From Girardia tigrina (lineage: Eukaryota): 49,946 nucleotides of DNA. The stretch's first letter is position 1; the number at the start of each line of letters is the position of its first letter. Made by a program: the position numbers and the translations under genes. The stretch spans positions 1 to 49,946 of the forward strand of contig MQRK01217243.1 of the NCBI GenBank assembly GCA_001938485.1, given 5' to 3'. This document shows positions 14,301-49,891 of the stretch, one piece after another. The notes under the pieces are model-generated. The model worked only from the letters and a program-made list of their open reading frames with translations. It searched no databases and was not told where the DNA came from.

Positions 14301-17300
14301 TTAGAAGTAAATTCGGAATTAGTTTAATCAGAAAAAAATATCCGTACAAAATTTAATATAGGGTATTTCGACCAATATCATAATTTTCTCGACCAAAATC
14401 ATGAAATAATTCTATAAAACAGTATTTAACATGTAAATTATGAAAAATGTGAATAAATTTATTATTTTCAAGCCAATCAAAGTTTATTAATTTCGACGGA
14501 TTAACCGTCATCGTCAGAACAAATGATTTTTAAAACGAAATTTACTTATACAGTGCAGTTAATGATTATGCAATCAATACGTCATCAGTACATCATTTAA
14601 AAACTCTCAACAAAGTTGTAGAGAATGCACTTTGAACGTTAATTTTAGATCCAAAGATCTTATATATAACGCTTCACATGTCACTCTCTCCCAATAATTT
14701 TTAAATTGAGTGCACAGAAGTTTAAAGTGTTGTTAATTTATATCTCCTTTACAATATCTTCTATGCTACTTCCACCTTCATTACGACTGTGCTCTGGGAT
14801 TCTTTTACAAAGATTAAACCGTCGAAATTAATAAACTTTGATTGGCTTGAAAATTTTTTATTCGACAGTTTACCAATTTTATTCAAATTTATTCACAAAT
14901 TTATTATTCATTTATTTTTTCTCTATTAGAACACAATTAAATAACCAAACATTTGTCTAAAAAACGAACTACAATAATTATCTGTAACTTTGATAAAGTT
15001 AAATTTCTTAATTCTTGTTCATGTTTTGCATTTCCTCGAATTAATAAATTTTTCCATACATAAGATACATTTTCGATCGGGTTTAGAAAAGGTGAATAAT
15101 GTGGCAAATACTTAATGTTCATACTTGAAATTTCGAGATCATTTAATAAATCCCTGTAATTGTGACTTTACGTGTTTTCCATTACAAATGTTGCTGAATC
15201 TAGAAATGCATGGTATTTTCATTTCTTTTAACGGATCTTTAAACATTTCATCATTTACAGCTTGTTCATAAATTTTATGATACAAAATTCCATATTTATT
15301 CATCGCAGCTACAACAGAGATATTTCGGCTTCGGGAAGTTGGAACAGAAATGAATGCTGATGTTGCTTTTTTGCTTCGACCTTTATTTGATCTTGTCACA
15401 ACAGCAAAGTCTACTTCATCCAAGAAAATAAAATTTTTATCATCATTTATTGTTTTCCAATCTCGAATTTGGTTTGTATATGTTTCACGGCTATCAATTG
15501 TTGATGCTGTATTTCTTCTTTCTGGAATCCCATCAACATTTTTTATTGTATAATGAAATTCTCTTAGTACTCTTTCAATAGTACTTATTGAAACCCACAC
15601 ACTAAATTTTGCCACTCTTCTTTTTATCACCAGAAGTTTTCTTAACAACTTCTTTAGTGATTTTCTTCACACATTTGGCAGCAACTTTGGCAAGCATTGT
15701 CAATTTTTTATCCTTATCAGATATCGAAAATTTTATTTCGTTTTCTATTTCATCCGGTATTTTATAAATGAAAAAAGGAAGTATATCTTAGTAAAACACG
15801 CAATAAGTAATTGTGTAATCATCTTGGAATTTTTTATCAGGCACACTCCAAGAGGTTTTCAAAGACCCACTTGTACATTTATGCAAGCAATATTTAATAA
15901 TCTATCTTTGACCATCTCCCAATAAATTTTGTAAAACAAAAAATTCCTTAAACGTTTCAGAATCGCCGAAATATATAAACAAGTTAATAAAAAGTCTAGT
16001 GACAATTTAAGCGCAATTTCCTTATGTTATTCGGTGCCCAAATATTAAAACGTTTATATCAGTATTTGACTATGATTAATTTTTTGTNNNNNNNNNNNNN
16101 NNNNNNNNNNNNNNNNNNNNNNNNNNNNNNNNNNNNNGTTGTCTATTAATTATTAAAACGTTTATATCAGTATTTGACTATGATTAATTTTTTGTGACCG
16201 AACGAAAGAATATTTTTGAAAACTTTCTTCGGCAATATTGTTCTAAATTATTGCAGGACTCGATTGGTAAATGTTTCAAGTCGCTAAGTGGTCTGGTTGC
16301 CGAGATATAGGCCAAAAACTGCATTTTTTCGAGGTTTTTTGGCTTTTCCCGGAAATCCAGGAAGGAATTCCGGGAATTTTTTTGGCCCACAATCATCCTC
16401 CGAACTTGCTTAACATATTTACTTTTGGAACTAGCCCTCGATATTGCTTCGTTGAGGAGGAGATACGACTTAAAGCTGCGGACACACATCCATCCATCCA
16501 TCCACACAGAAATAACCAATTAATAATCGCAATTGTCAGTATGGAAATTGCGCTAAAAAGTTGTATTGCGCAACTACTACGGGTATTTTATAAAAAAATT
16601 ATACCAAATTGTCAAAATCATTAAAAGAGCTGTACTGAAGTTCAAAAAATTCGCTCTAATCGTCGGAATCTTAAAAGTTGGATTTTTTGGTTATATTATA
16701 AGAAATATAATATAAAAAATATTTGCATAAAGTATTTGAGGTAGTAAATTAAAATTCATTCGAATATATTTTAATAAAAAGATAAGAGATAAACTAACGA
16801 TTTACTAAAAGAAAAAAGAACAGAAATGTAAAATTAAATTAGAGAACATGTTTTGAAACAAAAATATTTTAAAATGTTTTTATCGCTTGAAGAGGGTTGA
16901 AAAAGTTTCTTTTTGTGTTCTTTACGTTATTTTTACTTTTTAATAATATTCGATCTTTTGTTATTTTAAAGTGTATCTTTAAAATAATTAAACGTTAAAA
17001 CATTAAAATACCTAAGAATGTTTGATTCTGACATATTAAAAGATGAATTTTAATTATAAAATTATATCTTATACATTTTTCATTATTTTGAGATGATACA
17101 TTATTAATTGAATAGATTAAATTTCAGATTTAAGTGTTCATTGGGGTTTTTGTTATTATATAATTTTGATGGACTGCTTATTTATATCTATACTTCACAT
17201 TAATTTAATAATACGGTAATTGACGTATATTGTAAAATGTTCCAAAATCCCAAAGTTTTCTGTATTAAAAGTAAATTTGGGACATATTTATGATCTAATA

Positions 17301-20300
17301 TGTGAATTCCAGGTGTAGAATATAATAGGAGTTGTTAAAAATATAATGTATGTTATAATTACAAATTAATACAACCAAAAAATTAATATTCAGGCATTAG
17401 TACAGAAAAAGTGGCCAAATCTGATTTAGATTTACATACGTTAGCGGCCCAAATTAATGGAGATTGGTTCAAACTAGCAGAAGCTCTTGGAATCACTGAT
17501 GAAGACACTCTAAACAGCCTGAGTTCAGAAAAGGATCCAGCCTACGCTCTTTTATTACTGTGGAAGTCACGGAGAGGGGATTCACCACATGGTTATTCAA
17601 TTTTACAATATATTTCTAATGTCTTCCTAAAATATTGATCTTTAATATTAGGTATATACATATGTTAATCATATTTATACTTTTCATAAGGAACTTATTT
17701 TGATTTTTTCTCTAATTAATACTCTTTTCGATTATCTACTTTTTTATAGTGAACATTATGGGGTCATTTATTTCGAGACAGAGTATTTTTCTTAGAATTA
17801 TTTAAAAAAATTCTGATTTTTTCAGCTTTTTCAAAATATGTTTTTAATAATTTTGTTTTTAAAATGAAACTTTTTTTGGATATTTACACAATATTTTTTT
17901 ATAAATATTCTATAAATGCTTCTTTTTTTCCTAATGTTATTTTATTGATATAAAAAACGTCTTTTTGATTTAGCAGATCAAAGAGACATGAATATCTGAG
18001 AGAAACAAATAAATTATTTCCGGCCAGACGTTTAATATTTTTTGTCGATGTTTTATTATTGCTTTGAAAATCATTCAGATTAATTATTTAACCGTTTTTA
18101 ATAATGTACGCAATTTATTTTTGGAAAGTTTTATTGTTTTAATGAATTTTTAAAAAATCTAAAAACATTTATTCTTGTATCAAAATCTGCAGGATGTTTT
18201 CCATAGGTCGTTATTTTAGATTATGGTTTATTAAATATAATCAGCTTTTGTAAATATTAGTTTGTATAAAAATAAGATAAATTTAACACATATTGACGAA
18301 CAATAGTTCTAAACTTAATAAATACATTTATGTTTAAAGTTTATCTAATAACTAAGGTCACAAAAAGTTTGTTTTACAAAAAAACAGTGTACCTCAATCT
18401 TTTCCACTTCAAAATATTAGCCGTTAGTTCCAATGCACCTGTCTCATTTCCGTTTCCATCGTTCAAAACATTTACAAAGGTTATCAGAAATCCAGCTTTC
18501 AAGTTCCGTACAACTTGAATTTTGGGTATAAAAATAAACTAAAGGAACTAAGTCTTACGAATCTTGAGTGATCTAGCGTTGTAATTGAATTACAAATCAC
18601 AAATTCTCAGACAATGAAAGCAGAATAAGTGGTTCATTTTCGTGATTCAGAAGCTATTAATCACACAAATTCGGTCGCACTCGACGTACATGATCCATCA
18701 ACAGTTTGTGAACCTCCACGTAGACCTTTTGTGTGAGAAATCCATCAACAATGGAGATCGATAGTCTTTTTGGTTCTACGTCATCGTCGCAGTCTTCATG
18801 GCTTTCTCCGAAACGCTTGATCTACTTGAAAAAAATCTGTTTTTTTAAGTTATAAAAATAATGCCAACTTTAACACTACGATTATCTAGATGACCTCATA
18901 GTTAAAATGCTTCAGTATGTTCCTCACCATCAGCGCAGCCAACGATGTTTTCACAATGCTACGTATGTACGAAGCTTTGCCAAATTTTTGGTCAATATTT
19001 TACTTAATATTAGTGGTACTAAAACGAAATTAATGAATAAAAATTTATAAATAATTCTTATTATTAATTTTAACGAAATAGATACCTTCCTTCACGTTTC
19101 TCTTATTTTTTTGAAACATTTTGCCTAACAATAACGTTTTAAATGTTGTTTCGATTTGTTATCAACTTTAAAAATTCTACGATCCAAAGAATGTTACATT
19201 TCCCTTTTAAGTCAAATTAGATGGCATAAAATCTAGAGGCCATTATTGGTTTCTTATTGTTATCCAAGACGGGCTTTTAATTTTATCCTTCGTCACTTTT
19301 ACATATAATATCATTTTTTACATATTATCATACTAAAAATGTACTCAAGGACGACTTGACAATGTGGAAGTTGTTCTAAATTTATACAAGCTACTACTTA
19401 AAATCGAATTATACTCTTATTGTTTGACAGGGTTAGAAGGTTTAAACATTAAATGTAAATAGTCGCAACCCAAGGGATTTTGTCATTGATAAAATGATAT
19501 TTTTCAGAATGTTTAAAAATACCTAATTTATCTGTTTTTATCCAAGATTAACCAATTTTCAAGATTAACATGTTCGCCGAATTTTCTGTTAAATCAAATG
19601 TTCTATTTTTAATAAAGTATAAATTTTCAATATTAAAACTATTCCTCACAATAGGTAATGAATTGGATAAAGCTCTACATACCATCGGTCGAGAAGATAT
19701 AATCAAAAATTGTTTGCTTAATACAACTGTTGTAACTAATGAAAATGAAAAAAGAAAAGCTTTTAAAGAAATAAATGGTTAATAAGTGATTTGGAATAAA
19801 ACAATTACATATTACTATTAGGCACTCATTACTTACATACTGACAAGCGAGGGTCACTGGATGGAGACGATAAAGCATCTCAAGGAGAAGATGATACGAA
19901 ACCATCAGTTGAAGAAGAAGATAGTTGGATTAATAATTAAATCAATTTTTTATAATTGCTAATGCAGGTGACGAGTCAATGATCATTGCAACTATCAAGC
20001 CAGGATCCGTGGTGAGAACAGACGAGAATGACAATGAATTACCTGATATGAAGAAAAATGCCTTTAATAATTTAATAGATATGTTAGATCAGATTTTACC
20101 GGAACCACTAATCCATGATCCTACTTATGACGATAGTGAGTTATTCTGAAAAGAAATGAATTTATTTCTATTTTTACAAATTCTTCAGATTCTGTGAGCG
20201 AAGATGAAATTTCTGCTAAAATAATAGAAAAGCCTGATAATATTCATCTTGATTTTTCCGCTATACCAGACAAGTTTGATGAAACACCAGAAGAAGATCA

Positions 20301-23300
20301 CCCAGATGATCATATTAAATCACGAACAAGTTCGATTGTCATTGTTTTGGTGTTGGTGATTTATGTTTTCCAATTTCTTCAGTGAGAGATACTTATGCTG
20401 AGTTCAAACCAAACGACGACTACTCACCCCCAGATGCTCTCGATGATCAAAAAGTTCTTTGTGGTAAAAAAAACAAGTTCTTTATAGTACTAACAGTAAC
20501 ACATATCACTTTAGATTACGAAAAAAGATCAGAGGTGGAAGATGACTTGCCAGCTGGTAATAGTTCATGTTTTTTGTCTTTGATTGTGTATGATTTGGTA
20601 GTCAGTTTTGAGTTCATATCTTATAAGTCTTCTTAATTACTATATCGATATGGTTACATGTGCATTTGAAATGGGAATGTTTGAAGTAAACTCGATCAAA
20701 TTCGTTTCGAAATAATAAAATATCAAAAATATGATTAATATATTTTTGAATGCTAATAATTATATTTTATTTTACCTTATCTGAATTTTAATATTATTAG
20801 GTGATTTATCAAATGAAATATTTCATAAATGTTTTTTTTAATTCATCGTCGCAATTTGATGATAATACTCAACAACTCCTTTTATTTCTCGAAAATCACA
20901 ACGATAAAATATTTTTTGATGTTTTGTCGAGTTTGTCATCATTGAACATCAAAGATCGTCTTGATTTAGGAGCGTTATTTATAAATTTATGTTGCTTGAT
21001 AAAAATCTTTGAAGTCAAATTTTACTACTATAACTTTCCCATAAGCTTCGATTATGTTACCTGTCTAGCTAGTATTCAAATCGGGATCTTAAAAGAGCAA
21101 CATGAAGTCTTGGGTTTAGCAGTTGCAGACTTTGGCATCTATTTTAGCAATAAAAACATTTTGTTAAATAGACGAAGTTTATAACTACAGTAGATTCTGT
21201 TTTTATGCGATTTTTAAAAAAAATATTATATGATAAAAAGCTTCTACTTCATTGGATGGCCAACAAGAAAACGTGTGTAACTACATCAATTTTCAAAGAA
21301 TGGCTTAATCGATATTTTATTCCAGAAGTTAAGAAACATTTGCTAGATAAAAGTCTCGAGTTCAAAGTGATTTTACTTATCGATAACGCGCCAGGTCATC
21401 CTTATATTAAACATCCCAATGTCGCGATAGTCTTTCTTCCATCTAATACAACCAGCATTTTTCTACCATTGGATCAGGGGATCATCTATAATTTTAAAAA
21501 AAATAGTATATAAAGTGGGCATTTCACCACATTTTGCACAAGATCGAGAATGAAGAGATGACAGTTATGAATACCTGAAAAAAATTTTCGATTTTGGATT
21601 GCATAAATCATGCTGATTTTGTTATTAAAGCTATAAAACGAAAAACTTTATATGCTTGCTGGAAAACGATTTGGCGAGAATGCATTAAAGGGAAAACCTA
21701 CTAGAAGAAATATCAACTGCAGAAAATATCTTTTTTACAATTGAAAATATTACCCATTTTTATGTGCTTTTATTGCATTATATCATATTTATGCTGTCCT
21801 TAGAAATATGGAACCTATAAATGGTTTTACTATAGTATTAGTACCCTTTTTCTGCAGTTTTTTTATGATGTTCTTTTGGAACATATCTACTGCATAAAAA
21901 AAGAATCTACTGTATTTCTACAAATTAAAGTCGAAAAATGTTTTTCTTTCAATTCAAATATTACAGTACCTGAGACTCATATTTAGACAAACAATCTTTT
22001 AACTCTTATATATCCAAAACTCGATGCTGAGCACCAACATGATAGTCAATTTCCTTTTATACGTCTAGATTTTTTGTAAATTGAGAAAATTTGATAATTA
22101 TATATTTTTAAACAACGTTCAGTACTTACTCGTTTAAACAATAGAATCAATTAAATTAAATTTAGTATATAGCTGGAATGAACAGGGTAAGAAATACGAC
22201 ATTCGTGCAATTCTTCAAAACAAGTTATTTCGATGAAATGGTTTACTGCAACGACATCGAAGGTCTTCTTTCGACAATAAAAATTCACACGAATGTGCAA
22301 TAGAACTGGTGACTCTTTGTCAATGGAAGTGTCAACATTTTGAAGGCTATGCTCCTTCATAAGGACAACATGTTTCCTGTATTGCCAGCGACCTATTCCA
22401 GGAAAGTTAAAGATACCTACTTGTTAATAAAATGAATTTTTGAGCTAATTCATCATGACAACTTCAAATGTAGAGTTTTTTTCGAATTAGAAGATCATCG
22501 TAATGCTCACTGGGATGTTGGGTGGCTACATCAAGTACGATTACTTTATTTATCTATGAGATAGCAAGCACGTCAGCAGCATTACAGGAGAAGCTATTAA
22601 CAAGAGTGTGTAAATCGAACACCAGGAATGCAAAATGTCCTCTATGAGGCTTTCGTAACACCGGGAAAAGTAACACCACCTTAACATGTTAAATTCGGCA
22701 TTTTCAAAAATTTCTTCAAGACTTTGGATTCGAAAGGGGAGCTAATAAAAACACTAAAGAATATTTTCCCGTGATTATCAGCAGCCAAAATAAAAGAATA
22801 CGTCTTCGTTGGACTAGATACCAGAATATAAATGAAAAGTCAGCAATTTCAAGATGCATTATCCCCAGTTGAATTGCATGTTCAGTTACTTACTTCAATT
22901 ACTTAGACAACATACGTACAAGAAGATTAAATCGAATTTGCTATTTATTTTTTCTCAGGTAAACATAGATCTTTTGGTTATCGAGATATAGTTTCATAAA
23001 TGTTGGAACCATTTGAACTGATGAAGGGGAATATGTCTCCGACAATTCACTTTCTAAAGTCACCTTAATTTTTTTATCCAAAATGGAAGAGATCACAGAC
23101 GAGCATGCTGAACGATTTCATGAAACCCTTTCAATACTGAAACAGCGATTTCAAGGAAAAGCAGATCATAGAATGATGATTGACTATTTATCGATGATTG
23201 GTTGTCGCTAAAATATGAATTACTTTGCCATAAATGCTGTATTACTTGTTTTCAACCTTGGGAGTTTGCATATTTTCAAATAAAATAAAAAGCATAAGAT

Positions 23301-26300
23301 AACAAAATATCTGGACGAATAAGAGAAAAATGACTATCATATTCGTGTTTAGCATCAAATTCTGGATATAGTACGTGTAAAGACTTCTTTGTCTAAAATA
23401 AAAAGTGCAAATTTGTCGGCTGTTGTTATTAGCAAATAAAGATAATAAAGTTATGAATTTGTAACTAATTGTTAAATAAAAATCAATAATGATTGTATTC
23501 TTAAAATAAAGTAAGAAATCTGACAAAAAAACCATACTGAAAATATTTCAAGGTCTCTAAATCAGCATCAATTGTTCTTTTCAATAAATCGTATGTGATC
23601 ACATGTTAGATAGATAGCACCATTTAATCTGGGAGTTAAATCTCTTTTGAAAAATCATCAAAGGATTAAGGTCCCCTGAAAGGGGGTGTCGGAAAATTCG
23701 TCCCCGAGATAAGTGGTTAATAAATAAAAATAAATAAAAAAAAATAAATAAAAATACTATTGTGAGAAATTTATTGATTAAAATGCATGTCGCATTCTTG
23801 AGTATTGATTAGTAGGATCTGTTAGTTTTTAAGAAAAATATTACACAAAAATTAATCCAATTCTGGAAATGAAATATACACTTCAAATATAAAATAATTT
23901 TTATATTTATATGACATTTCATAGATTATAAATTAAATTACAAAAATAAATGCTTAATAGAAAATCAAAAATAAAGAAGGATATATTTTAAAAATTTAAA
24001 TTTTCAGATTTTTTAACTTAGAAGTTAAAATTAAATGCAATACCTCTCAGATACTCAATATTCTTACTTCTTTTATAATGGTCACAAACCATAGAGTGAC
24101 CTCTTTTTGAAATTTTTTGATATTTCTTATTTCTTGTGGTAATAGGTATCCAAGAATTTAGCTGAGAGAGATCATATTGATGAAGACTTTGTTGTTGTTT
24201 GAGAACGTCAATGAATTTATATTTATTTGGGCAAACTGAACCACACATCTGTAAAAATCCACGATGCCAACCTTCAATATAAGTATTTGTACGATGGTCA
24301 TCATTTAACGGTCGCTGATATTGATTCCACATCTGTATTTCGAAAATAGGTGATCTGCGTCTTCTGTGTACCTTTTTTAATTTAGTCATTTTTTATTTTA
24401 ATTATTAAATTTTTCTGGGGCATTTTTTTCCGGGGACGAATTTTCCGGATACCCCGGAAAGGAAAATAATACCAATTAACCCTAGCCACACAAGGCTTTG
24501 AATGTAGACATGTTGTATTTAAAAACAAGAAAACAATAAATCTTTTTCTCAACGTACTTGCTGTGTAATATAATTGAAAGGAAAAGTTTTGCGTTATTCA
24601 AGTTCCGTTGAGAATTATCTCCGATGTCATTTAACCCTTCGTAACTCAATAGAACTTCGTAACTCAATAGAGAGAACTGTCAAATTCATCATCCTACCAC
24701 CAACGCCACCTGTAGGTACTAATAAATCACCGATGTTGTATCGATCGGTGTGTAACAGATATGAAACAGTGATTTAAAATGTGATATGTTAATAGTTAGA
24801 GATCCTGTAAGAGTTACAACGGTTTGTTACAGAAGTGTCACACCATGTTACGAAGGGTTAAGTTATAATTAAAATATTCATTTTTCTTATTAATTCGAAA
24901 ATTATATCTGATCTTCTTTTCTAAATATTTTCACAACCTTATGCTATGGATAACTATGGAGTTGGATTGATTTCAATTCTTATGCTCTTCAATGCTTAAT
25001 AGCATGCTGCAACACCCTTGCATGTGTCTGAAATCATTTATTGCGATCTTTTATAAAATTGTCTTTATGCATTCAGAGGAAACGTTTTATCTTATAATTT
25101 TTTTGCGAAAAGATTGTTTTTTAAAAACTGGATTGATAATAAAATGGAATTTAATTTTATAATTCAATAGAAAAAATGTTCAGATACCACAGAATAAGAT
25201 TCAATTTTTAATGACAATTTTTGACTTCTGAAGTTTTTGTTATTCAAAAGGAACGAACATACATCCTCATATTAGGTGGCAATACTACCAGCTTTATCAT
25301 TACCACTTATTCTTATGTCCGTTATGATTATTCTATAACTGAATCATTCGACTCAGAGATCCTCGAATCATCAGTTCTGATCTTTTACAGAAAATTGATT
25401 TTGAGAGTATGAAACCATAAATCTTTTGTTTTTTTAACGAAATGCATATTGAATGTTGAATTACTACCGTATATCAAATGAGTACACTGTGTCAATGTTT
25501 ATGAATGGGGCTGGTTTTATTTTAATGTTTCAATAATAATATTTATATTTCATTATTGAATGCATTAGGAATTTATGATTCGGAGTCGCAGAATCCATTC
25601 GTGAGTATTTTCTCGCCAAGCAAATTTAACTCAGACACAGATGAGGATTTTAGTTTTAGTGATAGGGATTCTCCTGTTGGTAATAATCGGAAGACTCACA
25701 TTTCTGTTAGCAGACAATGTTTTAGTCCTATTAGAATTAGGACACCTTTCTATAACAATTCCAACAATTCTTATGATAATAGTATTGAAATATCGAAGAA
25801 AATGAGATCAACTGCTATTGATCTAGAAGATAATTATAGATCATTGCAAAGCTGCTCGCATCCGGATACTGAGAATAATCAACATAATAATTATTTTGTT
25901 CGTATTTCAGTGGACGAAACTGTTAATAAATTGGTCCATGTACCAAGTCATGGGAAAAATATCTGTCAATTTAAAATAAAGAAAATCTTCGATCACAATT
26001 GTAATGCACCAACAATATCGGAGAAACATTTATCTTTGAGAAGCGAAAATTTGCAAATCATTCAATTAGAAAAAGTTGTTTCAGATAACTTTTTAATTAA
26101 AGGACACTTAAGCCTGAACAATATCGATAGTAGTGAATATAATCAGGTGTCGTCGGCATCTTCATCCGATTGCAATTTCGACTGTGACGAAGACGACTGG
26201 AACATTGCGACAGAAGAAGATTAGAAGAACTAAGATAATTAGGTTGTTTTAGGATTATTGCTGATCGCTTAGCGCTGCCTTAAACTTAGCTTTACTAATT

Positions 26301-28087: not shown

Positions 28088-30123
28088 GTAACAATTCAGA
28101 CAATTTGTGCACATGTGAGTTTTATTTTATTCATGTAACTTAAAATGGTTTACTTAAAATAAAATTGTGTTTGAGAACTCGTATAATATGAGTGCTATAG
28201 ATATGCACATTGTAAAAATAATAATTATGACACTCTCATATTGGGTGTGTTTTATAAAGTACTTAGGTTTTCAAAAATGTAATTGTGAGAAGTGGTTGCA
28301 ACCTCAATATCAGGATTCATTTTTTAACACCAAAATTTATATATATAACAATTCACATATTTAAAACAAATTTTCCTGTTAATTTAATTATCTCGACCCA
28401 AATTAATCTATTAAATTCTTTGCGATTTAATTTTTAAAATCCTGAAAATTTATTTTCAAAATTTATTTCAAAGTTTATTTAAAATTGCTTATTAAAAATA
28501 TTTTTATTTATAAATAAATATTTAATATTTTTGTTTTCTTTACATTTTTAATTTTAAGATATTTAATAGATGCATTAAAAGATTTTTTTATTTTTAAATA
28601 GATATTTTATTTTTTATGATTTTCTTTTATTATATCATTTTTAATTTTTTTAAAATATTTAAAAACACATTAAAAATATTTTATTTTTAAAAGCGTTTTT
28701 GATTTTTTAAGTTGTTTTATTACATCATTTTTAATTTTAAAATATTGAATAAGCATATTTACATAAAGATATTTTACCCTTTAAATTAAAAATAATAAAT
28801 TATTCAGGCGAGATAAAAATTTAAATTAACCCCTCATAGTAATAAATCTTCCAAAATCGATTCCAAATTTTACTTTTTATTTAATTTAATTTTACTTATT
28901 ACTTTCTCTAGAAGAAATTGTGGATTATTGAATGTTGTTTCAGCAATGTGGAGCTACCTGGTACCTAAACGAGGAAACTATTACCTTGATTCGTAAAAAA
29001 ACCCTAAGCATCATATTTCGCTTCACCTTTTGAATTGCAGAAAATAATTCTAAAAGAGCGTATAATCAACAAAACAACTAAACTTCACACTCGATACGGT
29101 CTATGCAAAATTGGATGGTTTTGGTATCAGAAAACTATAATTCAGATTTGAACCTAACTTGTGAGATGATGCAAAACAACTTAATTCTTTGTAAGTAACG
29201 TGGATAGACTTTACTGGCAAATATGATTTCGAATAACCATTCACTTGATTGAAATCAAACGTGTATCATTAGAGTAGAAATTTTCTGGAGAGAAATCATC
29301 TTTAAAAATGCAAACATGGACATTCCAGAGACGAGTGACGATGCTTTCCTAGTTATGGTACCAAAAAGCATCATACACATCACTTTGTAGACAAAATCTT
29401 TGAAATAAACTCTATTACAGTGAGATCATTGCAACCTCCAGATAAAAAAGAAAGCAAAGCAACTCACCATTACGGTTCCTACAAAACCCCATTAAGTATT
29501 CTTGATTAAACGCTGGTCGATTACTGATATTTTCAAATCATAGTAAACTGAATTTCAACATGATAAAGACGCAAAACACAGATACAAATTATTCAAGCAG
29601 TACATCGTCAATCAGTAGATTTAGATGGATGAATTTCTGGCAAATAGGCTAAATCTCATTCTGATCGCAAATTTGGATGGAGTTATTTAGGAAAACCTTG
29701 AGCAACGAAAGCCGCGAAAAGTTTATAACTAAAAGACTTTCTGAATGATGAATATGTCAGACCAAATAATTAATAAAAATTGAGAAAATGGTTATTTGAG
29801 TAGTTATTAATAAAGATAAAACTATAATTATAATATTCTTTTAATGTTCAATTTCGTTCTTTAAAATATTTATAATTAAAACTTTACAGACCGCACAATA
29901 TCATGTAACATTACTAACTCTAAAATCTTTTTTAGATAAATTTTTTAAAATACAAAAATCTTTATTGCTTTGTTTCAACTTTTTGTTTAAATATTCGTTA
30001 GCACTTTTATTTAAAGCGTGTTTAAAATTATTAAAATTAATATTATTCAAATAAATAGGATTTGTAACATAAAAACCTAATATTGCCTCAATTTTCGCCT
30101 TAAACTTATTTTTATCAAATCTA

Positions 30124-30320
30124 TTTTTAATAAAGTGTTTAGGGCCAAATCAATTTTCAAACAGCATTCTCAACTAATTTGTTAAGAGTTTTCGATTAGA
30201 CTTGCGTAATTGATTACGTAATCATTCATTTGTTATATAAGAGCAATAAAAAAGAACATAATCAGTGATCTGATGATGACGGTTAAACCGTCGAAATATA
30301 TTATCACGAAATATATTTTT
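30124..30320 (+). mobile_element. 3' fragment of a Penelope-like retroelement
   Basis: Encodes LIKCLGP.INFQTAFSTNLLRVFD*, homologous to INVQSAFSTTLLRVF* of the copy at 14465-14853, followed by a related 3' UTR and a hammerhead motif. Confidence 0.78.
30265..30307 (+). ncRNA. Minimal type I hammerhead ribozyme
   Basis: GUGAU CUGAUGA U GACGG-UUAAA-CCGUC GAAA UAUA UU^ AUCAC. Perfect 5-bp helix I, 5-bp helix II, palindromic helix III (AUAUAU); predicted cleavage after 30302. Confidence 0.85.
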
Positions 30321-32188
30321 AAATGACGTTTATTTGTTTAAAATTATTTATTGCTCGATTTGGATTGTGAAGGTAATAAACGATTGTCTTTCGAACGTAA
30401 TAGATAACTAATGCCAATGGTACTGAAAATCGTTTGCCCTATGTAATAGTTGATTTATCCCGGGTCATTTATTTAAATCAACAGTTAAATTTAACAATAA
30501 ACATATTTAATAATATTATGGTATTAATATTTATTTCTTAATTTCAGATTTAGATTATTCCATTTACAACCGATTGACTTGGATTTATTATTGTTATTTT
30601 GATTATTCTTAATTTGAATTCTTTGAAATTTATTATCATTGTTTATAAATCGTAAAGTTTATCAAGACTCCCTGTTTGAAACATTTTATTAATTTGAGGC
30701 TTTATTTCGTTTGAATCTTTTTTATGTTTTTATTTATCCAAATCTTCTATATATCTTCTGTGATTAAAACTGTGTTGAAGAATCAATTATTTTGGTAGCG
30801 ATAGATAAATCTTCGGTTTATTGAATCTTATTAGATGGATTTATTTGTGTTTAGCGAAAGTGATGTGAGTCTTTGAAAAAACGACAACTGTTGACATTCG
30901 TTGATATTTTGGACTTATTAAAGCAAAAATTTCGATTTTCCTTAGTGTTATTCGTCAATAATCGTTGAGTTTGTATACGTGTAACGCAATGGAAAGAAAA
31001 TTTTGATTTCAGTTTGCTTTAATTTTTTTTATAATTGATGTTATAAAACCGGTTTTGGCTTTATTATTTATTTAACATTTATTGTTCAAAAAAAACTGTG
31101 AATTTTTTGTTGATGTTTATTGAAGAGTATAATGTATAATGAAAACACCATATTGTATTTTTAGTTGCAGCCATGTTATTATTATCATTATTATTTATGA
31201 TGGATTATAGCAAATATACTTGTTTATACATATATATTGCATTGTTGAATCAATTTTCAATTGTTATATTTTTCTTGTAATGTAAGGCCTAATAATTATT
31301 GCAATTAAATAAATTTAAGTAATTACTTATTTCTTCTTAATTTCTGGTCGATTCACAAGGGTATTCATAAGAAAGTGTCAAACGTATTTGAAATGAAAGT
31401 ATAAATTTTTCATAGATTTTTCTAGTCAACTAATTTGGTTATACGATTGCAGTGAATTAGTGTGAATTATTTAAAATGTATTGAGAGCTTTTATTATATT
31501 CGTCTTAAAATATTCAATCATCAGTTTCTGGAATTAATAATGAACTGCCGCGCAAAGACGACTGCAGAATTCAGAAGATTTGTTTTTAAAAGGATTTCTG
31601 AGTTAATGCACTTCATGGAAAGGAAATACATACATTAAAAACTGCATTTTATCTTTGAAAAGTTCACAAAGTCATTCTTTTTCGGGGAGTATGAAAAATT
31701 AATGGTTGAATTAGTTACCTTTTTGAGTAATTATTTAACGTAGCAATGTTCGTGTGAAAAAAAGGTGAATCGTGAATCACAGATATTAATAATGATTAAT
31801 TATAAAGTATAATTAAAAATAATGTTGAAACTTTGGATGATATCCTATTGAAGGTTATTAAAAATATATTACTAAAAGTTGTTGCCATTGAAATATTTTT
31901 TTCAATCTACGGAAACCCAGAATTTAATTCATTTGTCAGGAACAAATTCGCACTCTTATTATCGATTTTATATATCTGTGCCATTTCAGGTTCATTATGG
32001 GCTTAATCAAAGTCAATTAGGAAATATCAGAATCATTTAGGAAACAATAAGAGTAATTTTGTAAAATTTTCGTTCTTTTTGGAAAGAGTCATAATCATTT
32101 GAAAATTTATAAAGAGCATTTCTGGAATTTAATATCAATATCTTTATTTCAAAATAATAACAAACATCATAAAATCGTAATATACCTG

Positions 32189-32321
32189 TGTCGTATTTCC
32201 TTTCAAATAGAAAAGTCAGATTATTGATTTATTAATATACAGAAAATGTTTACAAAGATAATTTGTAATTTCGCCACAAAATGTTTTAATCATTTAAATT
32301 AAAATTTAAAAAATCACCACA
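32189..32321 (-). repeat. 3' LTR (133 bp)
   Basis: Direct repeat of 35908-36031, with about 9 mismatches over the first 110 bp or so plus an indel. PPT adjacent at 32322-32330. Confidence 0.92.
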
Positions 32322-35300: not shown

Positions 35301-35907
35301 AAGCCACGATATTGAAGATGCTATTCTGTTTATTTTGTTTACAGCTTCTAATAGTGAATCTAGCGGCTTCCTTACGTTCTGCTACAGCAATAGCATCCTT
35401 CAAATCGAACTTCTTTTTGGCTTTGTCTCTCGCTGCAAATTCTTTACAAACTGTTGCTTGAGTTCCTAGATCTCGCAAGCCCCGACCAAATGAATCCCGT
35501 AATGCCCCGTCTTCGAAATTTGCTGGAAATTTACAATATTTCAATAAGGACCGTAGTTGACTCACATAGTCATGGATGGATTGCTCAGGCAACTGCTGAC
35601 ACGTATAAAGCTTGATCCGTTCTGAGAATACGTTCTTGTCAGCACACAATTTGGAGTGTAAAATTCGATAGCCGGGAGTGCAAGGTGACCTTAGCTGCTG
35701 TTTGTCAGTCGCTCCTACGTCTCTTCATAATAACTGGCCAACTGATCCCCAACGCACAACAGGAGTGTGTCTAATTTGTCATCTTCTGCAACTTCTGCCA
35801 ACCTAAGGAAACAATCGAAACGACAAATGAATTTTTCAAAACCCGATGCAGTAAGATCCATCAGCTGAGGAGGATTAAATTTGGCTATCATTGTTTGTTT
35901 ATTAAAT

Positions 35908-39789: not shown

Positions 39790-42700
39790 ATGAATCAAAA
39801 GTCGAATTTTCTTTCATATGAAGGATTGCATTTATCAGTTGCAATCGAAACACCGCATTATTTAACGGAATATGTCGTAAGTACACGTCGAAATAATGAT
39901 CAATGACACAAATCTATTTGAACATTGTCACAGGAATATCCTGTCAAAATAACGATCAGTGCACACGAATCTCTTCCTGGAGAATCGTATGTCGTCGTTA
40001 AACGATATTCCGATTTCGATTCATTGAAAAAATCGCTAAAATTAGTTCAATTTTCGACGAATTTACCGCCGAAAAAAGTGTTTGGAAAATTCGATATGAA
40101 TCTTGTGAATGAGCGCCAGATTCTCTTGGAGAAATATTTGAAATCGATTTTGAGTACTCCGATCGTTGGGAAATCGGTTTCCGTGACGAATTTCTTTCAG
40201 AAATCCGCCGATTTCATTGTCGATTATTCGAGTAAATTTATCGATTGATTAATTATAATATGATCGAAAATAATTTTTGATGTTTTTTGCTGTCGAGTGT
40301 GTTGAGAAAACGAGTGTACTTGGTTATGGATCCGCTTCGGTTTGAGAGTATCTTGCACGATCGTATTTGTACATAATCTTCATTTAACTTGCTTATGCGT
40401 GTCGATTGTTTCGGATTTATTAGAAATTTGTTTCTGCAATATTGTTTAAAAATTTCCAATTAAATGTTTTAATTGAATTCTAGAACAATTCTTTTTATTG
40501 ATTATTTTCGGTCAATATTTGATTATTTATAAATACTCAATAATTATCCTAATTTATTTCTAAAAACATTTTTTGTCATTTATTACAGTCGCTTGCAGTT
40601 ATTAATCATGCAAATATTTTTTTATTTATTCTTATTTTTACATAGAAAATTAACTGAAAATAATTTAAAAATCAGAAAATTTAAAAAAATTATTCAATAT
40701 TTGCTAAGTTATTTAATAGAATGCTAAGTAATTAATTTTTTAAAATTTTTTAATTATTTTTTAGCATTTAAAAAAAATTTTAAAAAATTATAAAAAAACT
40801 TTTAAAAAATTGTTTATATAATTGATATGAGAATCCCATATTGCGCGAATAAGACGAAAGCTGTTGCTGCCATAAATTTAGAACAGGGGCTAGCCTATCA
40901 CTATAAAAACCAGACTGCAGACGGGAAGAAAGTTTATTATAGGTGTAAAAATGCGCAATTTAGAGGCCACAGTGCGATGCTGGTGCCTATCTCTGGTACA
41001 AAAATACCTCTGAAGAAGTTGTTTTATTCCGCTCCGGAAATCCGCATTCCTGCACAGGAATTGATAGAGGGCTTACAAAGGAAGCCAAACTTGTTGTTAG
41101 AGGGCTTTTTGACCTCAATGTAAAGGCAAAACAAATTCTTGAAAATTTATAAGAAAAAAACAATCCTGTCAGATGTAAATCTCAAGTTCAGACATACTTG
41201 AATGCATTGAAATCAGAAAAGTATGGACAATCGACCTTTAGCCTTGGAAAGCTTGAAGAATGGTGTCTGAACCATTTTCGTAAAGAAGATGATGATGAAG
41301 ATTCTGCAGTTGTTATCGGCTATCAAGTTGTTATTCATGATGATTTTCATGAATTGAATTGTGATCTTAATGAGAATTGCTTTCAGGTTGTGATTTCTAC
41401 TTCGCGTCTCATTCGAAATATGTATTTGTCAGATAAGTTACATGCCGATGCAACTTATAAGCTTGTTTATGAGGGTATGCCCGTGCTTGTTATAGGAGTA
41501 ACGGACATGAATTTACAATTTCATCCTTGCTGTATTACTTTATGTTCAAATGAAAAACAAAGAGATTTTGACTTTGTTTCTAAAACTATACGTCGAGAGG
41601 CAGAATTGTTAAACTGCACTCTTAGAATAAATTGTTCAATTTCAGATGCATCAAATGCCATTCGAAATGCATTCTTGGATGTATTTGGAGTGGATAAGCT
41701 ACTGGTGATGTGTTGGGCTCACGTGCGAAGAAATACAGTGAAGCATGTGCATCTTTTGACAAATAAGAGACTTTAGACAGTCGAAATGGAAGATATTGAT
41801 ATGCTTCAGCTTTCTTCAAATTCAGAAATGTTTTATAAAGCAATGGAATGCTTTATCATAAAATGGAGAAATGAGCAAGGCTTCATCGATTTTATGTTTA
41901 GTTCTGGATGGTTCTCTAGTCATTCAAATTGGTATGAAAGTGTAAAGAAAAGAACACCTTCTACAGATAATGCACTAGAATCATTTATTAATGTCATTAA
42001 AAACGAAGATACGTTCAGAGAAAGGTATCCACTAGGAAGATTTATGGAACTTTCATTAACTTCAATCAAAAGATGATCTAATCTGTATAAGAATAAAGAT
42101 AAAATCTTTTTTGAAAAAACAGAACCATCTTTAGAACAATGGACGATATCATATCAGTGGACCAGAATGAAAAAGATATTAGCATTAGAGAAACAGAATT
42201 CGAATTTATATATTCTGTTCCTGCAGCTTATAAGCAAAGTGTTACTGATGATGAAATTAAAATTGTCGAGGAGATGAGATGGTCAACTTTTGATGACTTT
42301 AAAGTAAAGGCTTTTACTGTTTGTAATTCGTCCACTAACCAATGAAAATTGGCATGCTGGTTCATGCACTTGTCCATACTTTCTGAAATGTTTTGTCTGT
42401 AAGCATCTTTTAGGACTTGCTATACGCTTGAAGCTCTAATCTGCACCTCCCGCAGCAAAAAACATGCCCATTAGGGAAAAAAGAAGGCGTGGAAGGCCAA
42501 AGAAAACTTCCAGAGCACTGCTCATTGATTGAAATAAATCGGTTTTAATAAAGAATTATATTTTCATTGTGTTTTGAATTTTTGTGACTTTATGAATAGA
42601 ACCTGAGCTTTTATCATTTCGGCTTTGGGAATTCAAATTATTTGTTTATCCAATTCTTTTTCATCTGACTCTCGAAAAAAAGTTCGTTTTTTAAACATTT

Positions 42701-45700
42701 ATTTATTCATTTACATTTTATACATGAAATTATTTAAATTATACTTTATATTTATAATTATCAATTTTTTTTGAAAATTTTTGAAATGATTTTTTTTTAT
42801 TTTGAACTGTTTTTTTTAAATTTGAAATAAAAATTCAATTTTCAAAATATTTTTTTATTTTCATTAATTTTTTAATAAAATTTAATGTATTTTTTACTTT
42901 TGTGATTATTAAAAGAAAATTTATTACGAAAAAAATGTTTTTCTTGTTATCTGGAATTGATTAATTGAAATACTTTGATTAAAAATTTGATTAAATGCTT
43001 TGATTAATTGAAAAAAATATGAAAAAAATTAAGAAATTTTATATTATTAAATTGACATTTTATTAACAAATGGTCCTATTATTATAAGTGTATGTGTGTT
43101 AAGGGGTAGAAAATATTATTTTATATATTTTCTATTCTCAAAAGGACATTTTAATAGGTATGTATTTTATATAAACATTTTTATTGGTTTAATTTTCTTT
43201 TTCTTTCATTTTTAGACCTGGTTTTATAATTAAATGGACCTGACAGTAATTATACATTGATTCCTTGGTTTTTTTTGGATAAAAATCTTCATTTTGGACA
43301 ATGTTGAATGTGGATTGTCCTCAATGAATTCTATTAAGAATTCATCGACTTCTCTGATTATTGGCTTCTTGTAACCTCCCCGTTTTCCAAATAATATTAT
43401 ACCGTACTTTCGATATTTATAGATTATTGTTTTGACCGCCTGTTAGGATTTTTAGCCAATTTGAAATTTTTGAATATTTAATTTTTAACACCTAAAATAT
43501 ATAAACTTCAGTATATATTAAAATGCAGTATACAAAATTTAAATCTAAGTTAAAAAAATGTTTTTTAATTAAATTTCAATAAATAATTAAATTTAAGTTT
43601 TTTTAACAAATTCAAAATTTAATTATTAAAGTTTAAAATCAATAACAAATTTTTTTCAAAGAATTATGTTACAAATAAATTAAAATGGATGAGTAAATTA
43701 AATTACAAATAATGGAATTGTAAAATATTAAACAAACTAAAATTTCGTAAATACATTGAAAAAGTATTAATAAAAATTTTTATAATTTAAGATAAAATTT
43801 TAAAAAACACAACTTTCCAATTTTATATATAAACTTAAAATTCCGAACAAATAATTATTCACAAATTAAAATCGGCATATGTTTATATTTATATTTAAAA
43901 TCTTGATATCTGGTTTATATAAATTTAAAAAATATTGTTCTTCATAAATTTGTTTAAAAAATGTTATTTTGTTGTATAAATAAAAAGTTGTATCATGAAT
44001 TCGGATTTTAATCTCGAACCCAATACCTATTAACTAAATTTTTCATAAAAAAACGAAAATGAAATTTCTTTTCTTGAAAATTTATTACTTTTTCAATTAA
44101 TTAATTTTAAAAATTTAAAACAAAATTGATATTTATTTTTGAAAAAATAGTGCTTTTTGAAATAAATTAATAAATATTTTAAAAATTAATAAAATAAATT
44201 GTTAGAAACAAATTTTCGTAAAAAAAGAAATTAAAAAATACAGAAGATAGTGTACAAATATGATTGTCCAAGACGCTGTGATAGTTAAATTGTTTACATT
44301 GATTTATAGATTTAATCCAGAGGATAATTATTAAATATTTATAAATAATCAAATATTAACTGAAATAAAAAGAATAAAATTCGTTTAAAATAATTAATTA
44401 AAATTTTTAAAAACTATTAAAATAATGCCAAAAACAAATTTTTGATAAATCCGCAACAATAGAGATACTTAAGCAACTTAAGTGATGATAATGTACAAAT
44501 ACAATAGTGTAAGAAATATTTCAAACCGAAGGGGATCTATTGCCAAGTATACCCTAAAATTTAAACACAAAACATAAACAAATACATAAAGATTATAAAA
44601 TAAAAAAATACAAGAGAAAGGAATTTTTAAAAAGCTAAAAAAACTGTAAAATAATTAAAATAAACAAAAATCGTAAGTAAAAAGAAGTTTAAATTAATTA
44701 ACTACTTAACGTACGTGACACAACGTCAAGTCCGCATTCATTCTTTTGCTTGTAAGACTTTTGCGATGAATCATACAGTGCGTAAATGTAGCAGTTGGCA
44801 CATTGGAACGCACACGTTCCCACAAGCCTGTTCGTTTTCCAGTCATTGCTGCAGCACCATCCGTGCATACTCCGATACACCAGGACCATTTGCTGCCATA
44901 AAATTATCAAGGATATAAAAAAGTTGTGCACTTGTTGTGTGAATCGGACAAGTTTTACAAAACAAAAAGTCTTCTTCAACTTCATCCATCCATATATCTG
45001 ACATAAGCCATTAATTGTGCCTGGTTAGAAACATCCGTCGATTCGTCCAATTGAATGGCAAATTGTTTACAATCTAGCAGCCTTGAAATCAACTGTTCTT
45101 CAACGTCAGCTGCCGCCAAAGTTATACGGTGTTGAATTGTGTCGTTTGAAATTGGAATTTTTTTAGTTTACTAGCCATAGCTTCCCCAAACATCTCTCGG
45201 TACATATCTATAGCAGCAGGCATTATCAGAGTTTCTTCTATTGTGTGAGGCTGTTTTCCTGTGCAACTCGAATTGCCACTAAAATGATGCTCTTAAAGCC
45301 TTCTCATTGACTTTAGTTGCTTGTACAATGCAAGACTTCTGACTATCAAGTGAACTTTTTTGCGCAGAAAATATTCCAATGGTTTTTCCGAGCAGTCAGG
45401 ATGATTAGTTTTAAGATGTCTTCGGAGTTTCACCGGTTTCATCGCTTCATTTGCAAGAATTTGTGAACATATAACACACTGCGGTCTGAGTTGATCATTT
45501 ACTATGACGCATATAAACCCAAAGCGCAAATACTTTTCATCATACCGTCGTATGGTAATTCGTCTTTTTTTCTTCGGAATTGCATTTGATTCACACTCAG
45601 GCTGTGAAGATGAGTATGAGTAATCATCATTAATGTTCTCATTTTCGGTTGTTTTCTTTGTTAGAAATTTATCCATATTTCCAATCAATTAAATTATTTT

Positions 45701-48492: not shown

Positions 48493-49279
48493 CCTTTACT
48501 AATCAGGAATGAGTTATTGAAATTTTATCTGAATCTATTTTTACTAATTTTTGAGACATTAAATAAATAAGTTCTAAGCCGGAAAAACAAATATTAATAA
48601 TAATTCATCGGTGTTGCAAAGAAATATTCCGATCGACAGATTGAAAAAGAATTTTATTATTATGTATAAAATATTTGATAAATTTCAATTGTATTTTATA
48701 CAATCGAATTTCATGTCACATGGATCGTCAGCGGGTTTATTTTTGTTATAAATTTCATTAACGATTTAAAACAAAAAATCGTCTGATAAAAGATTAATTA
48801 ATAATTACTATCAATAATTAAATCATTAAGAAATAAAGTAATTTTGAATTGATTATTGATAATTTATTTCAGTTAGCACTTTTAAAGTTTATATAAGTTC
48901 CATTGCGTACTTTGAAATTAATGATTAATTAACCATTTTTAGTTTTTCTAAGTCAAAATCACTTTTGAGATAATATATAGAATAAATACTCATTTTTTCA
49001 AGTGTTGAATAGACACACAAAATGCATCTTGGGTGTTTATATGATCCAATTTTTGTTGAATAAAGTAATTAGAAGAGAAAGTTCAAAATTTAATCGTTAA
49101 CGACAAAAAATTCTTTTTCGTCAATTATTTAATGTATGTTTGGGGTGGTTGTTTTGTTATATTTGTAGATAGTGTTTTTTGCTATATTTTTAATTGTCTC
49201 AAAGAAGATAAAGCATTTTTCATAAAAATATATGTTCTAGTTTCAAACAAACCAGTAATCCCGGGATCAAAGGATTGTA

Positions 49280-49560
49280 ATCCAGTAACATCTTTCGAAC
49301 AATTTTCCCTTCTTAATAAACCATATACAAAATAATGTATCTACTGAATTGATCTATTACATTAAATAATATTTATTTCAAGTTTACCATTTTCTTTAAA
49401 TCACCAAAAGAGTTCATATTTTTTTCTGAAATTGCTCATTCGCGGATTGTTTAAAATGACTTTCTTTTGTTTTCGTTGTTAAAGTCTTTCTTTGACAATT
49501 TATACATCTTTGAATGATTTATTTTTCTTATAAAATTGTTCCAAAAAATCTTTCTTCTAG
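49280..49560 (-). mobile_element. Gypsy integrase fragment related to the element at 6572-9780
   Basis: The minus strand TTCAAAGATGTATAAATTGTCAAAGAAAGACTTTAACAACGAAAACAAAAGAAAG...TTTCAGAA...ATAGATCAATTCAG aligns by eye with 8999-9240. Confidence 0.7.
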
Positions 49561-49746
49561 TTTATGGAATCTAATATTCTATATAATGTTAGGTGGAGCG
49601 GAGAATTGCCGATTTGACCGAACATTTTTGCCAGTTTCAGAAATTCATAAATAACACATATAATTAAATTAATAAATTAAAATAATTAAATAAATCTTTA
49701 CTTGAATTAAATAAAGTAATTAACGAAAAGAATATATATATATATA

Positions 49747-49891
49747 TATTTCGAAAATATAATTTGATTAAAGCTTTTTTAATACAACTATTGGACATGT
49801 TTCGATTTTTAAAAAAATCATCATCAGCAAAATCGAAACATGTCCAATAGTTGTATTAAAAAAGCTTTAATCAAATTATATTTTCGAAATA
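49747..49891. repeat. Perfect 63-bp inverted repeat with a 19-nt spacer
   Basis: Arms 49747-49809 and 49829-49891 are exact reverse complements. (TA)n tracts lie on both sides. Confidence 0.97.
49791..49830 (-). ncRNA. Minimal type I hammerhead ribozyme (GUC site)
   Basis: Minus strand: UUG CUGAUGA U GAUUUUUUUAAAAAUC GAAA CAUG UC^ CAA. Intact core, A/U-rich helix II closed by G-C, palindromic helix III (ACAUGU), canonical GUC triplet, helix I UUG/CAA. Confidence 0.8.

Follow-up and report, generated by a model that had tools for sequence, protein, structure and literature searches.

Minimal type I hammerhead motifs of probable Penelope-like element origin in a 49,946-nt stretch of the Girardia tigrina genome

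A 49,946-nt stretch of Girardia tigrina DNA (contig MQRK01217243.1; hereafter the window) contains three motifs, HH1, HH2 and HH3, which are very probably minimal type I hammerhead ribozymes of Penelope-like elements (PLEs), with such an origin likely for HH3 too. Cleavage is predicted for dimers alone, and the lone copies found here are likely silent. Both the architecture and the position of the motifs are already known for PLEs, and the finding is an ordinary one.

Table 1. Features of the three hammerhead loci, in window coordinates
Feature	Position	Strand	Details
HH1, minimal type I hammerhead	14482..14520	minus (reads 14520-14482)	palindrome AUUAAU; predicted cut after A17 (14485)
Decayed C-terminus of PLE GIY-YIG endonuclease	14593..14812	minus	three frames, one internal stop; phmmer, tblastn
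Inverted partial copy of HH1 end, with 42-nt tail	14814..14896	plus	41 nt, 98% complementary
Candidate 12-bp target-site duplication	left 14455..14466, right 14897-14908	plus	AT-rich control pairs
Host intron (GT...AG) containing the HH2 insertion	28115..30547	plus	X8 and X9 contigs join 28114 to 30548
Inverted PLE ORF piece, region just before DKG motif	29913..30149	minus	abuts endonuclease end
Last 16 codons and stop of PLE endonuclease	30147..30199	plus	70 nt upstream of HH2
High-copy repeat segment (end of endonuclease, HH2-bearing pLTR and tail)	30147..30345	plus	contig depth
HH2, minimal type I hammerhead	30265..30307	plus	palindrome AUAUAU; predicted cut after U17 (30302)
Perfect 63-bp inverted repeat	49747..49891 (arms 49747-49809 / 49829-49891)	unstranded	19-nt loop
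HH3, minimal type I hammerhead, separate lineage	49791..49830	minus (49830-49791)	palindrome ACAUGU; GUC triplet
One-sided tail, 27 nt	49892..49918	plus	(TA)n tracts flank insertion on both sides

All three motifs carry the core CUGANGA ... GAAA ... UH, with ends closed by helix I. Their elements run GUU, CUGACGA, U, a 5-bp helix II, GAAA, UUAA, UA, AAC in HH1; GUGAU, CUGAUGA, U, helix II, GAAA, UAUA, UU, AUCAC in HH2; and UUG, CUGAUGA, U, helix II, GAAA, CAUG, UC, CAA in HH3. Each has a single extra base (U) between A9 and G10.1, a G10.1-C11.1 pair, and a palindromic 15.2-16.2/loop 3 (UUAA, UAUA and CAUG, respectively). An initial sequence-only reading had described three minimal hammerheads, and the descriptor recovered all of them with exactly this order of motifs. 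Scanning the window with a strict and four relaxed descriptors returned these three loci and no others. Three matches were obtained in the window, against none in 1500 dinucleotide shuffles of it under the strict or relaxed descriptor, and three of 1500 shuffles gave one match when helix I was dropped. A search of the window against Rfam returned no hammerhead family; its seven matches were weak, unrelated and below the gathering score. The probability that the motifs are chance matches in AT-rich DNA is negligible. The window is 29% GC, the helix II of HH3 is A/U-rich and its helix I is partly confounded by an inverted repeat, but the shuffling result and the position of HH1 and HH2 behind PLE endonuclease ends refute a chance origin for those two.

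The architecture had been called non-standard, a description that must be dropped, as it matches the published PLE consensus CUGANGAH-G...C-GAAAN-palindrome-NUH (PMC4209133, text and Fig. S3). The metazoan hammerheads of PLE pLTRs described there (Cervera and De la Pena 2014) share with the present motifs the CUGANGA core, the extra base between 9 and 10.1, the G10.1-C11.1 pair, the palindrome from 15.2 to 16.2, a short helix I and AU-rich flanks. As here, they are mostly solo copies from truncated elements, and opposite-strand pairs occur. The AUAUAU of HH2 is that of the Drosophila virilis Penelope row of Fig. S3, a figure in which U17 is common. By our count, however, the extra base (consensus H) is U in 12 of its 56 rows, compared with all three motifs here; most rows are without loop 3, and the 4-nt form is a less common listed variant.

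HH1 and HH2 are in the sense orientation relative to a PLE RT-GIY-YIG open reading frame (ORF) and lie just downstream of it, in the pLTR, 70-75 nt behind the endonuclease stop. At the HH1 locus, the endonuclease fragment ends 75 nt upstream of the ribozyme on the shared strand and matches the proteins P0122 and P0123 (phmmer E 1.4e-6 and 1.1e-5; tblastn E 2e-13), of which P0123 contains RVT_1 (E 2.4e-11). This fragment was missed by a word-based protein search and by a narrow six-locus profile. At the HH2 locus, the endonuclease end was assigned through homology to the HH1-locus segment that matches P0122, and the adjoining ORF piece matches P0131, P0135 and P0136 (tblastn E 1.4e-13 to 2.7e-13, 44% identity). 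Inspected by eye, P0123 and P0135 lack a cysteine linker joining RT to EN, which points to Penelope/Poseidon. Pfam searches on 18 frames around the three motifs gave nothing relevant.

Metagenome sequences place similar motifs in the same setting. A scan with the HH1/HH2 core gave 65 loci, and these, like the set of 68 metagenome matches used below, retain several non-intact or unrelated chance matches (e.g. L008, L017, L033, L056). In 29 of the 65, a PLE endonuclease match ends less than 400 nt upstream on the shared strand, mostly at 113-143 nt. One locus, L027, carries a GIY-YIG domain above the Pfam cut-off; neither its endonuclease nor the six-sequence profile was close enough to pick up the fragment in the window. 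Prokaryote genomes yielded no match to the HH1/HH2 pattern and no relative of P0136. An antisense overlap, with a GIY-YIG frame opposite HH1 and HH2, was rejected: the frame had no Pfam match and no homologue, and the sense strand is where the true endonuclease match lies. A literature search for hammerhead, Penelope-like, GIY-YIG and antisense together, in which subscription papers were mostly out of reach, found nothing.

To judge from their structure, the HH1 and HH2 insertions are 5'-truncated and inverted. An inverted 5' piece and a one-sided tail recur across the loci, as an inverted end plus tail at HH1, an inverted ORF piece at HH2, and a hairpin plus tail at HH3. The inverted copy of the HH1 end starts within loop II and hence is without CUGANGA. 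The candidate duplication at HH1 has modest support, with 68 of 5000 matched AT-rich control pairs sharing at least 12 nt; at the HH2 insertion, no target-site duplication of at least 7 nt was found. Canonical PLE insertions are drawn with inverted pieces and a tail (PMC8557442, Fig. 2 legend; PMC3846280), as at HH1 and HH2. Insertions of EN+ PLEs (Arkhipova et al. 2013, PMC3846280; Craig et al. 2021, PMC8557442) likewise show a 5' inverted copy and a palindromic junction, with an optional tail carrying the first ORF codons and, in some clades, microsatellite targets. In contrast to those insertions, only stubs of 170-430 nt remain here. The Poseidon element PAc of Anolis carolinensis also has a one-sided tail, of 30-40 nt (PMC11167929).

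HH3 probably represents the stub of a PLE end, an assignment that draws on the motif, the hairpin, the tail and the (TA)n target; a 27-codon open frame at the locus also fits. Neither Pfam frames nor tblastn matched a PLE protein at this locus, and a scan of viral contigs with the HH3 pattern gave no matches. Its 5' half falls in the 19-nt loop of the inverted repeat. The predicted fold of the hairpin has an energy of -86.1 kcal/mol (z -20.8), and the predicted pairing probability of helices I and II in context is 0.00. HH3 is a hairpin stub in (TA)n and is predicted to be sequestered by the inverted repeat.

The three motifs were also said to have covarying helices. They do differ in sequence while keeping their pairing, but their value as independent cases is smaller than it appeared. 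HH1 and HH2 are evidently relatives, since 106 of 148 aligned columns (72%) and the helix II stem are identical, so the three motifs represent two lineages. These two differ by a single compensatory change in each of helix I (U-A versus A-U) and the palindrome. In HH3, both U residues on the 5' side of helix I (49830-49829) lie within the 63-nt perfect inverted arm, so that two of its three pairs are confounded, leaving the G-C pair as the sole independent evidence. Within the HH2 family, run X1 shows variation at the two outermost pairs of helix I (30306 A>C/T at about 48% of depth; 30307 C>T at 69%), and the conserved helix I is therefore 3 bp rather than 5. In an alignment of eight representatives, chosen by hand from 71 motifs, 96.6% of 88 cells pair and two-sided change occurs at 8 of 11 pairs, a result equalled by none of 500 shuffles. 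The search pattern had fixed helix II in seven of the eight, and changes in that helix come from HH3 alone.

The suggestion of a large genomic ribozyme population is borne out for one family. The repeat segment with HH2 drew 5347 mapped contigs, and its summed contig depth in run X1 is 1.1-2.4 million, compared with 65-74 in unique bins. The HH2 family is thus very abundant in this run, four orders of depth above unique bins. This abundance bears on another reading, that the motifs are non-autonomous retrozymes or SINE-like units amplifying as short RNA circles. Such units would explain why the HH2 segment of about 200 nt is far deeper in X1 than the neighbouring ORF piece and is abundant in RNA-like runs, and animal retrozymes are reported as derivatives of PLE ends (bioRxiv 10.64898/2026.07.22.740005). 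Animal non-LTR retrozymes (PMC7229834; same preprint) resemble the present motifs in being type I, PLE-derived and thought dimeric. They are, however, tandem non-coding repeats, whereas the copies here are solo and attached to ORF remnants. No tandem array was found around any of the three motifs. A direct copy within 1.5 kb upstream occurred in 0 of the 68 related matches, and an inverted copy in 7. The HH1 and HH2 units begin inside the endonuclease coding region, as expected from 5' truncation. Amplification as retrozymes is, on balance, unlikely.

The location of HH2 allows a further reading, in which the ribozyme has been co-opted to cut a host pre-mRNA intron, pairing in trans with abundant family transcripts. 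HH2 is intact, lies inside a spliced intron in the sense orientation relative to the host pre-mRNA, and has family-like sequence plentiful in RNA-like runs. That X3, X8 and X9 are RNA runs is a guess from the spliced junction and an uncovered stretch of intron. The same splicing led to rejection of a putative RT thumb at 30500-31200, since 30548-31325 is a spliced host exon. Sites with U17 are cut slowly, and HH2 has U17 at its cut site. Its helix I has a predicted pairing of 0.01 in context, and published PLE hammerheads cleave poorly even as dimers (PMC4209133). Co-option is therefore very improbable.

With 160 nt of context, predicted helix I pairing in the monomer is at most 0.1 for HH1, 0.01 for HH2 and 0.00 for HH3, and all three are predicted to cut only as dimers. 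A palindromic helix III is indeed, as had been pointed out, of the type reported to need dimers. The PLE variants of Lunse, Weinberg and Breaker (RNA Biol 14:1499) have a short palindromic stem III and dimer cleavage, according to a review (PMC6765202). Transcripts of an intact tandem element would contain the ribozyme twice. Helix II would fold inside each copy, and the palindromic helix III and helix I would pair across copies, giving two active cores. The element's own protein would probably assist dimer cleavage, which would trim the precursor RNA; the present copies very probably arose through 5'-truncated, inverted insertion. PAc cleaves with protein help; its in vitro transposition did not require cleavage, and RNA-seq reads ending at the cut were not found in that work (PMC11167929).

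The palindromes had been proposed to act as a family-specific pairing code, which would prevent cross-activation between elements. On paper, mixed pairs do keep fewer helix III pairs (4, 3 and 5 of 6), mixed 6-mer duplexes are weaker (+0.8 to +2.6 versus -0.2 to -4.6 kcal/mol), and palindromes differ even between the relatives HH1 and HH2. Nonetheless, helix I is likewise exchanged in a double hammerhead, and its trans form retains 0-1 bp in all three mixed pairs, including HH2 with HH3, where five of six helix III pairs remain. Mixed dimers are thus predicted to fail mainly via helix I, which discriminates between families better than the palindrome. Only a handful of 4-nt palindromes are possible. 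CAUG is common to HH3 and 55 of the 68 metagenome matches (as CAUG then U), in families whose helix I and flanks differ and of which several occur in one assembly, and AUAUAU is shared by HH2 and D. virilis Penelope. Coding at the ORF start offers an alternative reason for palindrome choice, and nothing favours selection for discrimination over drift under self-complementarity. As stated, the pairing code is unsupported, and we consider it doubtful. A literature search that covered few subscription papers, the key dimer paper not among them, found by title no joint treatment of PLE hammerheads and heterodimers; the work of Lunse, Weinberg and Breaker may already contain remarks on heterodimers or the start codon.

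Ribozyme and start codon of the element are likely to overlap, through A9-U-G in HH1 and HH2 and through CAUG in HH3. In HH1, A9-U-G10.1 (14511-14509) reads AUG. The HH2 core reads as codons M-M-T, and its MMTVKPSKYI resembles the MMTNISSKYI with which P0131 and P0136, known from protein only, start. The score of this HH2 match is reached by 10 of 9972 window tiles, HH2 itself included; the HH1 match is weak, with 1261 of 9972 tiles scoring as well (104 for the HH1 tail copy). At the HH3 locus, the frame from the AUG in CAUG (49840) is open for 27 codons, through the 27-nt tail. Of the 68 metagenome matches, 31 have a conserved N-terminal motif that shares a frame with the AUG in CAUG, and 4 have it in frame with the A9 AUG. 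A precedent for such overlap is the anole PAc, in which the ORF begins at stem II and the start codon precedes the cut site (Frangieh et al. 2024, PMC11167929). Unlike PAc, HH3 and the metagenome families seem to take their AUG from within the palindrome.

If the ribozyme overlaps the ORF start, cleavage would part the AUG from the coding region. It is conceivable, as a tentative proposal, that the hammerhead is a dual-coding start-codon switch, its AUG supplied by the extra U in the HH1/HH2 clade or by CAUG in HH3 and the metagenome families. Dimer cleavage would then remove the AUG and split tandem transcripts into translated and template pools, helix I would provide family specificity, and coding would set the palindrome.

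PLE hammerheads were already described as massive and widespread in a 2014 survey (PMC4209133), and the present window adds one more animal genome rich in them to the known picture. Natural sets of homodimers and heterodimers could separate the role of helix I from that of the palindrome, and the two placements of a start codon inside the ribozyme provide a testable lead on the function of PLE hammerheads.

A search of the whole 49,946-nt window with a strict descriptor (CUGANGA, an extra U, a G-C-closed helix II, GAAA, a 4-nt palindrome, UH and helix I) yields exactly three matches, HH1, HH2 and HH3 (Table), and relaxed descriptors add no further locus in the window. With helix I required, none of 1500 dinucleotide shuffles of the window gives a match; with that requirement dropped, three of 1500 give one each. 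The hammerhead sequences quoted in the sequence-only reading are correct. An Rfam search of the window does not report HH1, HH2 or HH3 as hammerheads. The motifs are real, and they are instances of an already known kind. Their architecture had been described as non-standard, but a base between 9 and 10.1, a G10.1-C11.1 pair and a palindromic 15.2-16.2/loop 3 are recurrent in minimal hammerheads of Penelope-like elements (PLEs), as described in the available part of PMC4209133.

Table. Hammerhead motifs and other features of the window
Feature	Position	Strand	Evidence
HH1	14520-14482	-	descriptor match
HH2	30265-30307	+	descriptor match
HH3	49830-49791	-	descriptor match
ZU5-domain exon; long acidic open frames lacking any Pfam match	1828-2355, 25526-27899	+	Pfam E 1.1e-5 (ZU5)
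Exons joined by splicing, the second the last exon with 3' UTR	28085-28114, 30548-31325	+	
Decayed LTR-retrotransposon-like pol regions	6905-9663 (+), 32865-35724 (-)		protease, RT and integrase-like stretches by eye
DNA-transposon remnant, DDE_3-like	15139-15666	-	
DNA-transposon remnant, DDE_1	21172-21513	+	E 4e-22
DNA-transposon remnant, MULE	41153-41776	+	E 3e-11
DNA-transposon remnant, BED/Spin-doc-like zinc finger	45293-45688	-	
PX-domain exon, second host gene	39922-40248	+	Pfam E 1e-14

Remains of PLEs adjoin HH1 and HH2. The 39 codons at 14765-14649 (minus strand) have five matches (E up to 0.001) among 1.84 billion proteins. Three of these (P0122, P0123 and P0126) are RT/GIY-YIG proteins or fragments, P0123 having RVT_1 (E 2.4e-11) and a GIY-YIG match below threshold; the other two are repetitive and were rejected as chance matches. 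Queried with matches of this type and seven cluster members, tblastn finds the C-terminus of a PLE endonuclease in three frames at 14812-14599 (E 2e-13) and, on the minus strand at 30149-29913, an earlier portion of the PLE ORF (E 1.4e-13). On the strand of the hammerhead, the ORF stop precedes HH1 by 75 nt and HH2 by 70 nt. From this placement and the upstream stop follows the layout of the HH1 insertion, with the endonuclease end and the pLTR (the hammerhead-bearing PLE end) on the minus strand, and on the plus strand an inverted piece of the pLTR that carries a tail of 42 nt (14814-14896). It also has a candidate 12-bp target duplication (68/5000 by chance). In the HH2 insertion, an inverted ORF piece abuts a unit of endonuclease end, pLTR and tail. 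The HH3 insertion lies between two (TA)n tracts and is a hairpin of 145 nt, extended on one side by a 27-nt tail; protein searches of the window found no match for it. The available parts of PMC8557442 and PMC3846280 describe PLE insertions with inverted 5' pieces, palindromic junctions and tails of 30-40 nt. HH1 and HH2 show every sequence-level mark of a PLE minimal type I hammerhead; for HH3 a PLE context is only putative.

The motifs had been counted as three separate ones. HH1 and HH2 are instead one lineage, since they have a common helix II stem and, across the 150-160 nt up to GAAA, identical bases in 106 of 148 aligned columns. One pair of helix I and the inner pair of the palindrome show two-sided changes between HH1 and HH2. 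Contigs of run X1 were placed on HH2 at 80% likeness, which favours similar copies; among the variants listed, N7 is the only position affected within the core, helix II and palindrome, while the two outermost helix I pairs vary and position 1.1 is G at 30% of depth. HH3 sits in an inverted repeat whose 63-bp arms match perfectly around a 19-nt loop. Two of its three 5' helix I bases fall in the inverted arm, leaving only one independent pair; this overlap fits snap-back priming on short microhomology.

Complementarity of the differing helices had been taken to argue for selection on structure. In eight hand-picked representatives (the three window motifs and five metagenome loci), 96.6% of 88 cells pair and eight of 11 pairs change on both sides, values equalled by 0 of 500 shuffles; slid controls pair at 20-40%. 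Because helix II was preset by the search pattern and relatedness inflates such counts, they support selection but do not prove it.

The intron that contains HH2 in sense (28115-30547) has GT-AG ends, and contigs of two runs span its splice junction. After the HH2 helix I, a 10-nt stretch from GAAA recurs (30293-30317, plus strand; 15-nt period, in frame), and the repeat gives an alternative hairpin that would compete with helix I. In runs X3 and X9, 14 contigs each diverge at 30302-30303, directly past the predicted cut site at position 17. Beyond it, one consensus returns to family-like sequence, suggesting that the contigs stem from subfamilies whose helix I has a different 3' strand, not from cut ends.

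An AUG is formed by A9, the extra U and G10.1. Two proteins related to the ORF piece next to HH2, P0131 and P0136, start MMTNISSKYI, and the HH2 core translates to MMTVKPSKYI, with the cleavage triplet AUH as an isoleucine codon. The match is suggestive only, as 10 of 9972 window tiles reach such a score, and it is weak for HH1. Of 68 metagenome matches, four have the A9 AUG in frame with a conserved N-terminal motif, and 31 have the AUG of CAUG in frame with it. The HH3 CAUG opens 27 codons up to the tail end, which is not unlikely by chance alone. Such overlap has a precedent in the anole Poseidon PLE (PAc), whose ORF is reported to start at stem II and whose cut lies 26 nt further downstream (PMC11167929, available part). 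The A9-U-G start is not general, since by our count just 12 of the 56 rows in Fig. S3 of PMC4209133 have U as the extra base.

The HH1/HH2 core pattern finds 68 matches at 65 loci in metagenome contigs. For 29 of these loci, the same strand carries a PLE endonuclease match that ends no more than 400 nt upstream, mostly at a distance of 113-143 nt. GIY-YIG exceeds the Pfam cut-off in L027, and L026 holds a near-complete PLE (548-3891): its RT and endonuclease follow a decayed 5' hammerhead, and an inverted 3' copy of 600 nt lies ahead of the element. The pattern ended at GAAA, so the sequence beyond is unselected; CAUG-U follows in 55 of 68 matches, most from one family, with position 17 being U in 46, A in six and C in three. 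Two motifs on contigs of other kinds (L063:1207-1267 and L029:1250-1310, both minus) have an identical helix II stem, a 2-nt CG palindrome and a GUC triplet; that of L029 stands after two open frames without PLE match. PLE motifs of this kind are reported in thousands per genome, mostly solo and derived from truncated PLEs (PMC4209133, available part). In run X1, 5347 contigs match the 1.6-kb stretch around HH2, and summed depth at 30170-30331, which covers the HH2 family and is no copy number, reaches 1.1-2.4 million versus 65-74 in unique bins. In order-of-magnitude terms, this suggests that the HH2 family has ten thousand copies or more, in line with the very large ribozyme population anticipated earlier.

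Other elements surround the motifs. The ZU5 exon, acidic frames and last exon are possibly one ankyrin-like gene with giant exons, of which the last junction alone is linked. A direct repeat of 110 nt, with copies at 32189 and 35908, belongs to the minus-strand LTR-like region. Long imperfect inverted repeats (40351-40574 and 44145-44514) flank the MULE remnant, possibly as its terminal inverted repeats. A 48-nt duplication flanking a 50-N gap (16040-16195) is probably an assembly overlap.

In double hammerheads, a helix III of 1-2 bp cannot form in the monomer and two copies pair via their palindromes (PMC4209133 and PMC6765202, available parts). By our geometric reading, each core of the dimer would take the helix I 5' strand from one copy and the 3' strand from the other. 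On paper, homodimers form six of six helix III pairs and a helix I of 3-5 bp, whereas mixed pairs form four, three and five of six, with helix I only 0-1 bp. A family-specific pairing code in the palindromes had been suggested. The failure predicted for mixed dimers is owed mostly to helix I. Moreover, HH3 shares CAUG with several metagenome families whose helix I differs, some of them in one assembly, and the HH2 AUAUAU reads identically to the D. virilis row in Fig. S3 of PMC4209133. A palindrome code is therefore improbable; helix I discriminates more. PLE minimal hammerheads show low dimer cleavage in vitro (PMC4209133, available part). HH1, HH2 and HH3 are spaced 16-19 kb apart on alternating strands. 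They are predicted to be cross-incompatible as dimers, HH3 is predicted to be locked in a hairpin of -86 kcal/mol, and all three are most likely silent remnants.
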